A DNA stretch of 64,000 bases from Deltaproteobacteria bacterium (GTDB lineage: Bacteria > Desulfobacterota > SM23-61): contig VGSF01000018.1 of the NCBI GenBank assembly GCA_016875165.1, forward strand, positions 399 through 64,398. Direction: 5' to 3'. The translations under genes were made by a program, and so were the position numbers. The notes under the pieces were generated by a model. It saw nothing but the letters and a program-made list of their open reading frames with translations, was not told where the DNA came from and did no database searches. Below, one piece after another: positions 29,715 through 43,953 of this stretch (its first letter is position 1; each line of letters opens with the position of its first letter).

Positions 29715-30368
29715 TCACTTCACACAGATATTTTTGTAGCAACAATCAATACAGCGATTCAGTGACTTTGTTCTGGAGGGGAAATAGTTTTTTTGAACAA
29801 TTTCAAATATCTTTTCTACGATTCCCTTCGCCTGCCTGAATTTATCCTCCGAAAAATTCAATTCTTTCAGAAAATTGTTGCTCCGCACGTAACAGACATA
29901 TCCCTTATTAACCTCCTTCTGATAATTTTCCCGGATGAGCAGTCCGTAAAGCGCCGACTGGATAAAATGGGTTTGGAAAACATGATCATTGAATTCCGCA
30001 AATTTGTAGTCAAGCGGAGCCAGAGTCCCGTCACCGAAAAAAAGGACTTCATCGATAATGCCGCGTAAATGCAGGGTTGGCGAGGCAAGATATACGTCAA
30101 TTTCCTTATCCACGCATCCGATCTTCTTCCGAAGATAATCCCTGTTGATCCTGCTTTTCTCTTCATGAATCTCTCTTCCCTTCAACACTTTATACCTTTT
30201 CTCTTCATGCTGGGGGATGTCCAGGCAGTTCATAAAGTAAATGAAACGAGGGCAGAAGATATATTCAATCACTTCCGAGGGCGTGATGAATATCGGCTCC
30301 GCCACCCAGCCAAGGCCTTCTCGATTATTTGGCTGTGCTTCAAAAGAATTTGGCTCGGATTTCATCAC
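29715..30368 (-). CDS. cas4: Cas4 RecB-like nuclease
   Basis: N-terminal Cys ([10 protein letters not shown]), a DYKF motif, and a C-terminal Cys cluster [10 protein letters not shown]. Confidence 0.85.
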
Positions 30369-30630
30369 TCACCAGGCTCGGGTCAAAAGCACGCCCTAAT
30401 ACCCGGACTTTTTTAAAGTCATCCTCACATAAAGGAAAGATGTACACGGCATCGGTTTCATGATCGATGATATCTTTGGATTTCAAGACCAGCTCGTCTA
30501 TTTCATTTTTATTCAGATCTCCCAGAAAAACACTTTTTTGCACGCGGTAGAGCCCTATGTTTTTACAAGCTTTAGCCACCCGACTTCGCTTTTTATCATC
30601 GGAAATGTCATAGATGGCCCAAACCGTCAT
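30340..30630 (-). CDS. cas2: Cas2
   Basis: [37 protein letters not shown].. is a classic Cas2 beta-alpha-beta start. Confidence 0.85.
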
Positions 30631-30643
30631 GTTTCTCCCTCCA

Positions 30644-31621
30644 TCAAACCTCATCCTTGATCAGGGAATTAGCGATCCGGTGACAATCAAATTGGATCGT
30701 ATCCCGTTGTTTAATATTTCTTCCCCGATACCTGACGGATTTATCAAGGGTTTCGTTCAATGCTTCGATGAGCACTGCCTTCCCCTCCTTATTCAAAGTC
30801 ATGCCGTTGGGAATGATGTCGAAATATTCCTGCTTCACTTTTCTCTGGCTGAATAGATAAACTACGGTTTCTTCGGCAAAAATTCTGTACATCTCAATCA
30901 GATCGAACACCATGGATTTTTTGTTGTAATGATCAGCATGGACTATCCCGATGTAGGGATCAAGCCCTGCGATAATACAAGACTTCTCCACCATCGAATA
31001 AAGAACCCCGTAAGCATAATTGAGGAGGCAGTTGAATTCGTCTTTGGCCGGCATTTTACTCCGGCCGTTAAATTTGTACCGGTCCGGCACGATAAAACTA
31101 AGCGCATTAAAATAACTTTTTCCTGCGGACCCTTCAAGCCCCATGATGGTGCCGCGAAGCTCTTCCGTGGTTCCCGAAAGTCCCTCCAACTTTCCCTTGG
31201 TCTCCTCAAGGGATTTGATATAAGCATCCAATTCCTCTTCTTTCGCCGGGCGGGAATTTCTGAGCCTCTTTAAAAAATCGATCTGGTTCCCGATTTTTGT
31301 GGTAACCCATTCTTTCGCCATATCCATTCCCGTCACGTCCCCGGCCACTTCAAGCTGCCGCCTTCGGATGGCCGTAGTGCTTCCGAGTTTAGAATGCCAG
31401 ACCCGTCCGAAAGGGTCCCCGAAATTATCCAGAAAAATAACGTCGATGTTATTATCCATCGCCAGCTTCACGGCATCCGTGGAGAGGTATGCGCTGGTGG
31501 TGATCATGATCGACTGTACTTTTTTGGCCGAAACCTCAAAGACCTTATCTTCGTTTTTAACCAGAAAGTTACCTTCTTTTACTCTGAGGTAGGAGCCGGG
31601 AGTATTAATGACTAATTGCAT
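30644..31621 (-). CDS. cas1: Cas1 integrase
   Basis: [19 protein letters not shown].. and later ..DLIEMYR.. Length and position fit Cas1. Confidence 0.9.
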
Positions 31622-31704
31622 AGGACCAACCTCATTATCGATCCGGTTGTTTGATAAAATCATTTACGGAGGATTTAAACCTTTTCAAAATATCGTCAAG
31701 GCCG

Positions 31705-31995
31705 TTAACGATGGGCTGCTTTTTCATAGACAAGCTTTCCTTCCTTCATTACAAGGCTCTTGAATTTCGTCATCTTTCCGGAGAGGTCGATGATGTCAAC
31801 ATCCTTAGACATCTCCCGGAGGAGTTCTCCATAAAACATAAAGAGCTTTCCAGGTGGTATGTCCGCCACGGCGAAATCATAATCCCTAATTTCGGGGGGC
31901 TCCTTGTATAGGGCAGATCCGATCAAGTACATCTTCCCGATGCCATATTTTTTGGCAATAGCAATGGCCTTCTCAAGCTCTTCCTTCGGAATCAT
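31705..31995 (-). CDS. Minimal nucleotidyltransferase-fold protein
   Basis: LIGSALYKEPPEIRDYDFAV and VDIIDL resemble the GS..DxD..D NTase pattern. It overlaps the upstream NTase gene by 4 nt. Confidence 0.5.
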   Translation of the reverse strand: MIPKEELEKAIAIAKKYGIGKMYLIGSALYKEPPEIRDYDFAVADIPPGKLFMFYGELLREMSKDVDIIDLSGKMTKFKSLVMKEGKLVYEKAAHR

Positions 31996-32309
31996 ATTTT
32001 CACCCCTTCCTCTTCGATATTTTTTACGATGGGGGATACTCGTAAAGGGGAATCTACTATTTCATAACGTGAAAATACGAGAGGAGAGATAAAAACAGAA
32101 TACTCTAATCCGACCTCCCAGGCTATGTGATATATATTATCTTCCAATCCCTTATCGATATGCTCTGCTTCAATAAACACATCCATGTCAGAATACTCCT
32201 CAGCCTCACCCCTCGCCCTTGACCCGAATATCCTGAAATCTACCAACTGGACAACTTTGGCCAATCTCTCTTTCAGCTCCTTGGCTATTTTATAGTCTTT
32301 TTGGGTCAT
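31992..32309 (-). CDS. MNT-type minimal nucleotidyltransferase
   Basis: IFGSRARGEAEEYSDMDVFI motif. Confidence 0.7.
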   Translation of the reverse strand: MTQKDYKIAKELKERLAKVVQLVDFRIFGSRARGEAEEYSDMDVFIEAEHIDKGLEDNIYHIAWEVGLEYSVFISPLVFSRYEIVDSPLRVSPIVKNIEEEGVKI

Positions 32310-32394
32310 ACAAACTCGCTTTCTCGCGCTTGGAAGTCAGAAAAACTGTATGACAGCTCTTTCTTTCTCCCCAGATTTTTCTTTCCCTTTTTTC

Positions 32395-32522
32395 CTGGTC
32401 ACTGATCACTGCCCACTGATCACTGATCACTGATTACTGTTCACTTTCCTTACCGTTCCAAACCCCCTCGAAACCGACTTCCCAATCCCCCAATAATCCG
32501 GAATTTCAAAATTGACCGGAAA
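32395..32522 (-). repeat. Third copy of the cas6 3' end (last 27 codons plus stop) followed by tandem GTGAWCA heptamers
   Basis: The minus-strand reading of 32431-32522 gives VNFEIPDYWGIGKSVSRGFGTVRKVNSNQ-stop, matching the cas6 C-terminus. 32395-32445 reads GTGAACA GTAATCA GTGATCA GTGATCA GTGGGCA GTGATCA GTGACCA. Confidence 0.75.
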
Positions 32523-42412: not shown

Positions 42413-42520
42413 GTGTGAAAAATGGGACCTTCGGGCAGAAGGGACCTTAGATTCTTTATTCTTAGATAAAAAGGTCCCCCATTCCCCAGCATAAAAAAAA
42501 TCTCCAGGATTACGGATCTT
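42413..42520 (-). repeat. Direct repeat H, copy 1
   Basis: GTGTGAAAAATGGGACCTTCGGGCAGAAGG...CATTCCCCAGCATAAAAAAAATCTCCAGGATTACGGATCTT aligns to 43852-43953. Confidence 0.7.
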
Positions 42521-42596
42521 CATAAATTCCTTTGGGCCCCCGCTTTATAAAAGGGACATCCTAAGCTGAAAACTAATTTTCATTCTTGGAGTTTCC

Positions 42597-42770
42597 GTCG
42601 CTAAGTTCCAATGGATTTTCAGTGGTTATCCAGATCTCTGTCTTTTCGATCTTCATAGATATCAATGTAAGTGTCAGCGGTTAAGGAATGGCGCGACCCA
42701 GGGCTGTGGCTGCCTCCCCCTCACCCTACCCTCTTTCACGAGGGGAGAGGGAGCTGGAGGGAGGAGCATA
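42597..42770 (-). repeat. Direct repeat D, copy 2
   Basis: It carries MKIEKTEIWITTENPLELSDG, then diverges (..NSKNEN-stop). Confidence 0.75.
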
Positions 42771-42799
42771 TTCAAGAGGGGAGAGCGGTTGTTATCTGA

Positions 42800-43495
42800 T
42801 TATCCTGATTTTCCGATACTCTTTTTTATCAGTTTTCTCGCCAGCCCTTTAAAGAAAACAGCCATCTCCTGGTCTTGACATTCTTTCTTCATATTCAGCA
42901 GTTCTACTCCCTTTTCCGGACATTCCAAGAACCTTCCTTGAAGGATATACCTTAACCCTTTGATGCCGAATTTTTGTTCCGTGGCCTCGACCATTTCATC
43001 GATGGACGGTTTTGGACAATCTCTCAAGATAAAATAAATGTCCACATAGTCTTTCACATCCTTCCTGTCTGTCAATGCCATGAATTTATTAGCCAAGATG
43101 TCGAGGATGCTATCAACCTGTATTCCCTCAACCCTCTTGAATGGTTTAATCGTTTTAAATGGATATTTTGTGAATTCCACTTTTAAGTATCCAGCGTCTC
43201 GGTACCGGATTATGAATATTTTTCTATCGAACTTCCTTTCGAGATTTAAATCTTGAACCTCCGGTAGGGATTTCAAAAAGGCCAAAATGAGTTCTGTTTC
43301 AACCTCCTCCTCGGTGAAGAAGTCGAGGTCTTCCGATAGACGATGTCGGAGGAAAAAGGCTGACAAAGCGGTCCCAGCCGTAATATAAAACTTCGAAGCC
43401 CCGGGCCATTCTGCAAAATGCCTTAATAAGATCTTCTGATGTTTTGTAAGAATAGGATTATTTTTTATTTTTTCCACTCTTCTCCTCCCAGGCAT
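42800..43495 (-). CDS. Nucleotidyltransferase AbiEii/AbiGii-family toxin (DUF1814)
   Basis: FYITAGTALSAFFLRHRLSEDLDFFTEEEV and ..VKDYVDIYFIL.. Confidence 0.7.
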   Translation of the reverse strand: MPGRRRVEKIKNNPILTKHQKILLRHFAEWPGASKFYITAGTALSAFFLRHRLSEDLDFFTEEEVETELILAFLKSLPEVQDLNLERKFDRKIFIIRYRDAGYLKVEFTKYPFKTIKPFKRVEGIQVDSILDILANKFMALTDRKDVKDYVDIYFILRDCPKPSIDEMVEATEQKFGIKGLRYILQGRFLECPEKGVELLNMKKECQDQEMAVFFKGLARKLIKKSIGKSG

Positions 43496-43730
43496 TCTTG
43501 TATTCTTCTACGAGCAGTCTTGTGGTCTCATCCATCCTAAGCTTTCCCATCATTTTGTAAAGCCTAAACACGGTCTCTCTATCCCGGCCATAAACCGGGA
43601 AAAAATCGGCTATCCTTTGAAGCCTCCACAGTGGATCATCGGGAGGCTTTTTGTAATCCCATAGCAGCTCTTTGGGAATCTCAATTGCTTGGGCGTTCGT
43701 TCGTTTAATAACAATTCTCTTTTGACCCAT
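43458..43730 (-). CDS. Antitoxin-like partner of the AbiEii-type gene
   Basis: 90-aa ORF overlapping the toxin start. ..LWDYKKPPDDPLW.. resembles the partner at 7831-8172 (..FFWDYDFKKL..). Confidence 0.45.
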   Translation of the reverse strand: MGQKRIVIKRTNAQAIEIPKELLWDYKKPPDDPLWRLQRIADFFPVYGRDRETVFRLYKMMGKLRMDETTRLLVEEYKNAWEEKSGKNKK

Positions 43731-43851
43731 TTATAAATCTCCTCTTTTCACTTGTATTTAGGCACTTGTTGGGTTAAAAATACTCCCCCTTGAATCTTCA
43801 AAACAGATTTTCAGGTATTGCTGAAAGTCCATATACAAGTTTATGGGTCTG

Positions 43852-43953
43852 AGTGAAAAATGGAACGTTCGTGCAGAACGTGCATCACATTCCTTATTCT
43901 TAAAAAAGTTGCCTCATTCCCCAGCATCCCAAAAATCTCCGGGATTCAGGATT
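43852..43953 (-). repeat. Direct repeat H, copy 2
   Basis: AGTGAAAAATGGAACGTTCGTGCAGAACGT...CATTCCCCAGCATCCCAAAAATCTCCGGGATTCAGGATTT. Confidence 0.7.

Follow-up and report, generated by a model that had tools for sequence, protein, structure and literature searches.

In the Sulfolobales, vapBC toxin-antitoxin (TA) pairs are interspersed in cas cassettes (for example, four in the type III-D locus of Acidianus hospitalis; Garrett et al. 2015, PMC4390879), and a role of these pairs in keeping the CRISPR-Cas genes in the population has been suggested (PMC4390879). In CreTA and CrePA, a crRNA-like antitoxin RNA needs Cascade to repress the toxin, which makes Cascade indispensable (PMC9458426, PMC8501985; review PMC12737573), and it is an established hypothesis that immunity genes are coupled to suicide genes (PMC3506569). 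The CRISPR-Cas plasmid pSYSA of Synechocystis 6803 also carries several type II TA systems, which are thought to secure its maintenance (PMC4963859), and TA cassettes are reported to regulate cassette recombination within chromosomal integrons (PMC13108822). The present analysis concerns a stretch of 64,000 nt on contig VGSF01000018.1 of a deltaproteobacterial assembly (GCA_016875165.1), hereafter called the window, to which all positions refer unless another contig is named. It contains a complete type I-B CRISPR-Cas locus with five two-gene cassettes, most of them of TA type, placed at two boundaries between its cas modules.

As in the Sulfolobales, several complete protein TA pairs are found within and between cas cassettes; unlike there, this is a type I-B system in a bacterium, five different families are present instead of vapBC alone, the pairs are confined to two defined junctions marked by remnants of cas6 ends, and the arrangement extends over many bacterial phyla. 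CreTA and CrePA are similar in placing small toxin modules beside I-B cascade genes and in the idea of safeguarding cas genes, whereas each module of the window has a protein partner, no degenerate repeat or spacer match was found at the locus, and the cassettes survive the loss of cas genes in relatives. Sedentary chromosomal integrons (PMC13108822) likewise contain stacks of co-oriented cassettes that include TA pairs and penalise large deletions or cassette loss; unlike in integrons, the locus has neither an integrase nor a conserved DNA site of the attC kind, and the junction repeats are pieces of cas6 coding sequence. In contrast to pSYSA, in which a plasmid is stabilised, the cassettes are embedded in a chromosomal operon at gene junctions.

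We consider it probable (roughly 0.65) that these genes are exchangeable selfish TA cassettes residing at module junctions and that they give the locus at most partial protection against deletion. A normal, complete I-B operon would thus offer two module boundaries as recurrent landing or exchange sites for self-contained, co-oriented TA-type cassettes, one just 3' of cas6 and ahead of cas1 (site 1) and one just upstream of cas8 (site 2), with three cassettes having accumulated at site 1 and two at site 2. This reading builds on the observed anatomy, family assignments, recurrence, co-orientation, cas6 remnants and relatives with missing or swapped cas genes.

Anatomy of the locus and recurrence at two junctions

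The type I-B locus was located on the minus strand at 28.7-44.7 kb. Pfam identified all eight cas genes (cas8b, cas7, cas5, cas3, cas6b, cas1, cas2 and cas4), accompanied by a 12-repeat array. The order was two cassettes, cas8b-cas7-cas5-cas3-cas6b, three cassettes, cas1-cas2-cas4 and the array, with every gene on the minus strand. The cas genes and the array are as follows.

38845..40824, minus strand: cas8b, TM1802 family (Pfam)
37827..38843, minus strand: cas7 (Pfam)
37098..37823, minus strand: cas5 (Pfam)
34795..37101, minus strand: cas3, HD domain and helicase (Pfam)
34115..34798, minus strand: cas6b, intact (Cas6b_N and Cas6b_C)
30644..31663, minus strand: cas1 (Pfam Cas_Cas1, E 2e-77); its true start is likely Met15 at 31621, judging from homologue alignments, which start at residue 15
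30340..30654, minus strand: cas2 (Pfam CRISPR_Cas2, E 1e-22)
29715..30368, minus strand: cas4 (Pfam Cas_Cas4, E 5e-10)
28705..29545, minus strand: CRISPR array, 12 repeats of 37 nt and 11 spacers, co-oriented with cas (Rfam CRISPR-DR7, minus strand)

The cassette genes are listed in the direction of transcription, first those at site 2 and then those at site 1.

43458..43730, minus strand: p90, small partner of the AbiEii-like gene, overlapping it by 20-38 nt
42800..43495, minus strand: AbiEii-like nucleotidyltransferase, toxin candidate (PF08843, E 4e-16; PADLOC AbiEii, E 5e-13)
41939..42298, minus strand: H119, HEPN-fold protein (AlphaFold2 pLDDT 87), overlapping NT233 by 4-19 nt depending on the start codon
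41256..41957, minus strand: NT233, MNT-type nucleotidyltransferase (Polbeta, E 6e-13; NTP_transf_2, E 1e-10)
33580..34050, minus strand: PIN156, PIN-like toxin candidate (hhalign against the canonical PIN proteins of the genome)
33369..33596, minus strand: p75, small partner downstream of PIN156, overlapping it by 17 nt
32879..33157, minus strand: p92, partner in the TumA position (MJ0235 family PF27273 in precomputed annotation), overlapping the TumE gene by 1-4 nt
32523..32882, minus strand: TumE-family toxin candidate of 118-119 aa (PF20126, E 1e-12, above the curated cut-off)
31992..32309, minus strand: NT_a105, MNT-type orphan antitoxin candidate (NTP_transf_2, E 6e-9)
31705..31995, minus strand: NT_b96, MNT-type orphan antitoxin candidate (Polbeta PF18765, E 1.6e-9; MntA model, E 7e-8)

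All ten genes are co-oriented with the cas genes, and the overlaps within pairs span 1-38 nt depending on the start codon chosen. An earlier note on this DNA, made from its letters alone, had described five co-oriented, overlapping two-gene modules; their existence and positions were corroborated by gene calls and by an identical contig from a lake metagenome, whose JGI gene calls match the layout of the window (L168; L001-L168 are the labels of the loci and contigs used in the analysis).

Related loci were collected by a Cas6 scan with one genome per species, which returned 79 loci from Thermodesulfobacteriota, Nitrospirota, Brocadiales, Omnitrophota, Aminicenantes and other groups. Where cas6 was followed by cas1 (n = 44), the gap was shorter than 200 nt in 14 loci (at most 16 nt in 9) and held 0.6-3 kb of inserted genes in 30. 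ORF clustering combined with Pfam detected TA-type genes in 24-26 of the 30 occupied gaps, and the 67 inserted genes that were assigned to a family cluster shared the orientation of the cas genes without exception (67/67). The inserted families comprised MNT+HepT-like, MNT+HEPN, Rv0078B-like+AbiEii-like, DUF6922+AbiEii, PIN, Phd+ParE, HicAB, TumE with its partner, and NTP_transf_8; the few inserts of other kinds were an AAA_14/DUF4143 ATPase, a YhcG nuclease, a kinase-like ATPase and ArsR. About 10 of the 30 occupied gaps carried a cas6 remnant, and most were without one.

The position directly upstream of cas8 emerged as a second recurring site. H119 and its nucleotidyltransferase are found ahead of cas8 in L013 and, at a distance of 13 nt, in L158, two pairs of p90-type and AbiEii genes in L164-L166, and MNT+HepT in L002. 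The proposed association of TA genes with cas genes, for which a comparative survey of I-B loci had been suggested as a check, was therefore borne out, as it recurs in many phyla, at the same two positions of I-B loci related to this one and always in the orientation of the cas genes.

The content of the sites differs even between close relatives. L001, whose Cas3 fragment is 91% identical to that of the window, carries Rv0078B-like+AbiEii-like, and L002, whose full-length Cas3 is 91% identical, carries MNT+HepT, MNT with a broken HEPN gene, and DUF6922+AbiEii. Since the window, L001 and L002 have the closest effector modules and yet carry different sets, cassette turnover appears to be fast. 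Broken AbiEii, TumE or HEPN genes were observed in L014, L016, L012, L070 and L002.

cas6 remnants and relatives with altered cas genes

Fragments of cas6 and shared non-coding segments border the cassettes at both sites.

33145..33372, minus strand: cas6 3'-end remnant 2, a degraded ORF (Cas6b_C fragment, E 1e-4; 78% identical to 34169-34247), which begins at the stop codon of p75
32415..32522, minus strand: cas6 3'-end remnant 3, from about codon 197 (88% identical to 34103-34209), which begins directly after the stop codon of the TumE gene
40980..41131, minus strand: segment A, a scar between cassette and cas8 that comprises the upstream region and the first ~35 codons of another cas6
42595..42746, minus strand: segment A', a second cas6 5'-start remnant, 86% identical to segment A
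43850..43952, minus strand: segment B, the upstream region of the p90 cassette, with a hairpin at 43865-43881
42412..42517, minus strand: segment B', a shared cassette upstream region; terminator-like hairpin with T run at 42428-42442

A cas6 3' end, belonging to the intact cas6, remnant 2 or remnant 3, lies ahead of each internal cassette. Both upstream cassettes have segment A or A' after and segment B or B' before them. The source of segment A is a cas6 of the 'cas6-first' type (MNLEKTEIWITTENPLALSDGRAIRGFFGNLHRN), and the same sequence forms the start of an intact cas6b in L167. About 20 related loci contain cas6 3' remnants of at most 53 aa, which start at residues 175-202 (mostly 189-191), often include stop codons and often begin exactly at the stop codon of the preceding cassette gene. 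A 3' copy of cas6 before the internal cassettes and a 5' start after the upstream ones would be expected because the end points of recombination would fall in cas6. Repeats of a CAGTGAT-type heptamer are present directly after the cas6 stop codon (34103-34124) and, in expanded form, after remnant 3 (32395-32443). Segments A and A' carry at one end a G-rich element of ~30 nt (GGGTGAGGGG...; 41102-41131 and 42716-42751), a short dispersed repeat that occurs on at least 12 other contigs of the genome.

The 3' patch of cas6 has 87% amino acid and 76% nucleotide identity. Where the amino acid was identical among 62 cas6 genes, the identity of third codon positions was 0.47 in the patch and 0.44-0.47 elsewhere; since synonymous sites thus show no excess conservation, the patch is conserved as protein and not as a nucleotide signal, and its role as a DNA recombination site was dismissed on the basis of this test. 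The similarity of remnants to the neighbouring Cas6 was likewise discarded as a sign of import from a close relative, as the C-terminal ~40 aa are nearly invariant in all lineages. Neither gene calls nor Pfam searches pointed to an integrase or recombinase gene within the locus or next to it, and the combination of a recombinase with a conserved border site that would define an integron-like array was not found. The slot may have been duplicated in tandem and its cargo then replaced allelically; a circle consisting of a cassette and the patch may have been inserted by a single crossover; or homology-anchored illegitimate recombination may have been at work.

Several relatives have retained cassettes where cas genes were lost or replaced. 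L160 contains H119 and its nucleotidyltransferase (93% nucleotide identity to the window), a cas6 3' remnant, PIN with a small ORF, and an Rv0078B-like gene followed by an unassigned 168-aa ORF, all between housekeeping genes and with no cas gene there. In L163, about eight cassettes are interspersed with cas6b, cas2 and fragments of cas3 and cas4. L077 and L080 are collinear with the flank of the window over ~10 kb, after which segment B jumps to residue 175 of Cas6, so that everything from cas8 through the 5' part of cas6 is missing; p92-TumE, a remnant and NT_b96 (92.5% amino acid identity) follow. No cas1 was found in the remaining 1.6 kb of these two contigs, which end there, and cas genes may lie beyond. 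The metagenomic contigs L165 and L167 share a stretch of 7.3 kb, with two AbiEii cassettes in it, at 99.9% identity and diverge at locus position 7333, at about codon 42 of cas6, into different I-B effector modules. A plain deletion of cas8-cas3 in L167 was rejected, since the alignment displays a swap of the effector module with its breakpoint at about codon 42 of cas6. The comparison points to a very recent in-situ effector swap that left the upstream TA cassettes untouched. In these relatives, it is thus the cassettes that are stable and the cas modules that are replaceable, which fits self-contained pairs that would penalise their own deletion and not a CreTA-type device that makes Cascade indispensable.

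Composition of the five cassettes

In four of the five modules, a toxin or antitoxin domain belongs to or resembles those of TumE-TumA, MntA-HepT, AbiE, MenAT (Rv0078B-type) or VapBC. MntA-HepT is a type VII and AbiE (AbiEi/AbiEii) a type IV TA system. The TumE family has been validated experimentally, for proteobacterial members only, as a translation-inhibiting toxin that is neutralised by the upstream TumA gene (PMC10584680). A p92-like ORF was located directly ahead of TumE in ~65 of 78 metagenomic loci, and in precomputed annotation the label PF27273 is carried by the p92 homologue of L163 and the window-identical gene of L168. Going by this conservation, p92 and TumE constitute a conserved TumA-like/TumE module, which is the best-supported of the five pairs.

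The small protein p90 has more than 155 clusters of homologues, and an AbiEii gene was always next in the contexts read, including L163-L167. Unlike in AbiE, the AbiEii-like gene is not partnered by AbiEi, the upstream position being taken by the 90-aa p90 instead of an AbiEi-type winged-helix antitoxin. No match to p90 was obtained in Pfam, NCBIfam or PADLOC, and Pfam was also blank for 28 of its homologues. Its assignment to DUF6922, prompted by motifs that are alike by eye (LLWDY...RIADFF versus LFWD...RVLDFG), was abandoned because hhalign gave no significant result and members had no Pfam match.

PIN156, for which Pfam gave no match, was aligned by hhalign to the canonical PIN proteins with a probability of 69% (E 4.6e-5); residues D8, E44 and D99 were aligned, and a WNF motif occupies the fourth acidic position. 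Its family comprises 1629 clusters, some of which are called 'PIN domain protein' by NCBI. Every PIN156 paralogue of the genome, as well as the L160 copy, is followed by an overlapping ORF of 62-96 aa with a common V..VR..I.EE-type motif. VapBC differs in that its antitoxin gene lies upstream, whereas the PIN-like gene here precedes its conserved small partner and has one acidic residue replaced. By their shared contexts, p90+AbiEii-like and PIN156+p75 are conserved pairs with unclassified partners.

NT233 consists of an MNT-type N-terminal half and a C-terminal extension of ~115 aa. The extension (41256-41600) has no family match and is kept in L013, L158 and L160. Foldseek searches with H119 returned the HEPN proteins 2hsb, 1ufb, 1wwp and 3o10 as top matches (TM 0.54-0.67) with weak E-values, and 4 of 31 homologues had a weak match to PF05168. 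H119 does not contain the Rx4-6H motif; its invariant residues read R87-x4-Y92, with no His. Profile comparisons of H119 with the HEPN/HepT alignments of related loci were not significant and were set aside, which leaves the fold search as the basis of the HEPN assignment; profile searches of PDB sequences with the H119 and p90 families produced no useful match. The cassette thus departs from MntA-HepT in that the HEPN-fold gene precedes the MNT gene, in reversed order, and lacks Rx4-6H, and the site 1 genes NT_a105 and NT_b96 depart from it in having no toxin gene.

In both NT_a105 and NT_b96, the GS...DxD motif is intact (motifs GSRARGEAEEYSDMD and GSALYKEPPEIRDYD). NT_b96 begins at the stop codon of NT_a105 (4-nt overlap), and cas1 follows ~84 nt beyond NT_b96. 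Homologues of NT_a105 (L022, L024, L038, L056) are followed by a HEPN gene of 126-134 aa (PF05168), and those of NT_b96 (L002, L010, L038, L039) by a HepT-like_2 gene of 145-162 aa (PF20797). No adjacent HEPN or HepT toxin gene was present at the window locus; because these partners of the relatives are absent, the two genes are regarded as two orphan MNT antitoxin-type genes and not as a TA pair.

The earlier note had counted five TA-like pairs and had recommended profile searches of the ten proteins. These searches assigned TumE, AbiEii and the three MNT genes and left PIN156, p75, H119, p90 and p92 without a match in the Pfam library. To speak of five TA pairs overstates what is there: p92+TumE, p90+AbiEii-like and PIN156+p75 are conserved pairs, and the supposed pair of two nucleotidyltransferases is not a TA pair. 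The remaining module, noted as HEPN-like plus nucleotidyltransferase, combines H119, which has a HEPN fold by prediction and no Rx4-6H, with the MNT-type NT233.

Weighing of the explanations

From these observations, we infer a recombination route, toxicity and neutralisation within the pairs, and a stabilising effect, if any, as follows. Cassettes would be imported or reshuffled by recombination with end points in the neighbouring cas6 and would persist because the loss of an intact TA pair harms the cell (post-segregational killing). Decay would affect the toxin first, and NT_a105 and NT_b96 would be the leftovers of two MNT-HEPN/HepT modules. The cassettes would protect themselves and, as a side effect, make large deletions across them costly, so that the island may be stabilised in part; the Cas proteins would not be made indispensable by them.

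A number of points weigh against the selfish-cassette reading. The related loci were retrieved with this Cas6 and are thus a sample of one I-B lineage. In 7 of 11 loci, TumE homologues with at least 64% identity adjoin cas1, cas6 or a remnant of the latter, and more distant ones do so in none of ~55; this cas-resident p92-TumE lineage looks more specific than random hitch-hiking. Strict co-orientation and fixed positions could reflect a selected function within the operon. The p75, p90, p92 and H119 families are without functional characterisation. As H119 lacks the HEPN motif and PIN156 the fourth acidic residue, some of the 'toxins' may be inactive or otherwise employed. Finally, the recombination behind the remnants may have followed any of the three candidate routes named above.

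The alternative that survives best is a functional coupling, in which the cassettes would be accessory arms of the I-B system, serving as an abortive-infection back-up or addiction device whose toxins are freed by a failure of Cascade, Cas6 or cas transcription, such as might occur under attack by an anti-CRISPR. It would resemble CreTA, CrePA or the immunity-suicide coupling hypothesis, and we regard it as unlikely. The fixed positions and strict co-orientation in many phyla, the cas-resident p92-TumE lineage and the location of H119 with its nucleotidyltransferase directly before cas8 in three independent loci are in its favour, as is a KilA-N-like gene at the edge of the locus, since CreP toxins are KilA-N proteins (review PMC12737573):

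44138..44695, minus strand: ORF6N (KilA-N-like) gene at the outer locus edge (PF10543, E 1e-32), not counted as TA

No creA-like element was found at the locus near this gene in the repeat, handle, Rfam and spacer scans. A decayed second ORF6N copy lies upstream (~45177-45406), and ORF6N homologues are close to several related loci, in L004 between cas6 and cas1. Further out, a 50-aa ORF (45459-45611) is the N-terminal remnant of an HTH-WYL regulator gene, which is intact in L077 (12069-12776 of that contig); in L158, too, a WYL/WCX gene is located ahead of the cassettes. Regulators of the WYL type are known to be linked to CRISPR.

A dependence of the cassettes on cas transcription would also fit such a coupling. 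No terminator-like hairpin was found on the coding strand of the cas6-cas1 stretch, so that, on sequence grounds, the three internal cassettes could plausibly share a transcript with the cas genes. Terminator-like hairpins were detected between the upstream cassettes and cas8 (41142-41158 and 40970-40984), and the hairpins of segments B and B', which have a T run on the coding strand and are one compensatory base-pair change apart, could act as terminators insulating the cassettes or as operators. Read-through from cas promoters, as earlier envisaged for all modules, is hence plausible for the three internal cassettes; the two upstream ones are each preceded by a terminator-like hairpin.

Against a coupling, at least 10 unrelated TA families occupy the same site, which speaks against one biochemical link; each module has its own partner gene; cassettes persist without cas genes (L160) or beside swapped effectors (L165/L167), and many are decaying. 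Moreover, neither a creA-like degenerate repeat nor a self-targeting spacer was found. A scan of the whole window for degenerate versions of the 37-nt repeat gave 13 weak matches (21-22/37), compared with ~5 in mononucleotide shuffles, and none was near a cassette promoter. The 8-nt handle ATTGAAAC was absent from the coding strand outside the array, the Rfam scan matched the array alone, and the spacers had no match in the locus and no significant match anywhere in the genome. Control of the CreTA/CrePA kind was rejected for want of repeat, handle or spacer evidence, although a very degenerate creA could escape these scans. The analogy to CreTA drawn in the earlier note is accordingly not sustained: the modules are self-contained protein pairs, cassettes are kept where cas genes were lost or swapped, and terminator-like hairpins precede the two upstream cassettes and separate them from cas8.

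A more far-reaching version of cassette exchange, in which the outer ends of cas6 define an integrase-free exchange system of this I-B lineage, is considered rather unlikely. The 3' end would be used if cas6 is the last effector gene and the 5' start if it is the first, and a TA cassette with a short copy of the cas6 end would be excised and re-inserted by homologous recombination. Such units would spread between phyla with adaptation or effector modules; a single orientation would be kept via operon transcription, and the cassettes may drive or gate the expression of cas1-cas2-cas4.

Plain clustering in a defence island, with abundant TA genes being near cas genes by happenstance, was judged to be quite improbable. 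The 5.33 Mb genome has 92 profile matches (58 PIN, 25 NTP_transf_2 and 9 AbiEii), and 0.25 are expected per 14.2 kb. The locus contains 3 by these three models (5 modules in all; Poisson P = 0.002), a value reached by only 0.66% of sliding 14.2-kb windows and equalled at five further places in the genome. Density thus exceeds a uniform expectation, as had been claimed, yet is not unique in this TA-rich genome. Clustering would also suit the low G+C content of 0.39-0.45 from ~20 kb to 46 kb, compared with ~0.50 around it, in a stretch that includes decayed genes. It is contradicted by the rarity of equally dense windows, by the occupation of the same two junctions in dozens of loci from different phyla, and by the empty state, which is a tight cas6-cas1 junction. 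Elsewhere in the window, an AbiEii-family gene (8028-8849) and a regular MNT+HEPN pair (~20921-21555) lie outside the cas locus. Contig C14 of the genome, which has four PIN genes, contains a second cas1 and cas2 set at ~16.5-18.2 kb, which suggests a further CRISPR-Cas locus.

An integron-like system, in which the cas6 termini carry a specific recombination site and a cassette with its cas6 end is captured or excised by a site-specific or Cas-associated activity, is very improbable: the always short remnants with their narrow range of start residues, often at the preceding stop codon, the series of intact cas6 3' end, cassette, remnant, cassette, remnant and cassette, which fits serial insertion beside the intact cas6, the mirror-image layout upstream with cas6 5' starts and the uniform orientation are outweighed by the lack of an integrase or recombinase gene in or beside the locus, by third positions in the cas6 3' patch that are no more conserved than elsewhere, by remnants in only ~10 of 30 occupied gaps, and by remnant start points that spread over ~25 codons.

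For the selfish-cassette reading, the idea of maintenance as such is not new, since it was published for the Sulfolobales (PMC4390879). Additions to the literature found are the concentration at two cas6-bounded junctions in an I-B lineage that is widespread among bacteria, the range of families involved, the scars and the relatives with lost or swapped cas genes. The presence of TA genes among cas genes has been noted mostly in the Sulfolobales; here it is concentrated at two junctions, involves at least 10 TA families and shows quick turnover. The relatives are natural experiments that bear on the maintenance idea: as the cassettes outlast neighbouring cas genes, what they would protect is themselves and not the Cas machinery. 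Annotators should not presume that a small gene between cas6 and cas1 in such a locus is a CRISPR accessory gene, and in evolutionary terms, the remnants provide datable scars of module and cassette exchange.

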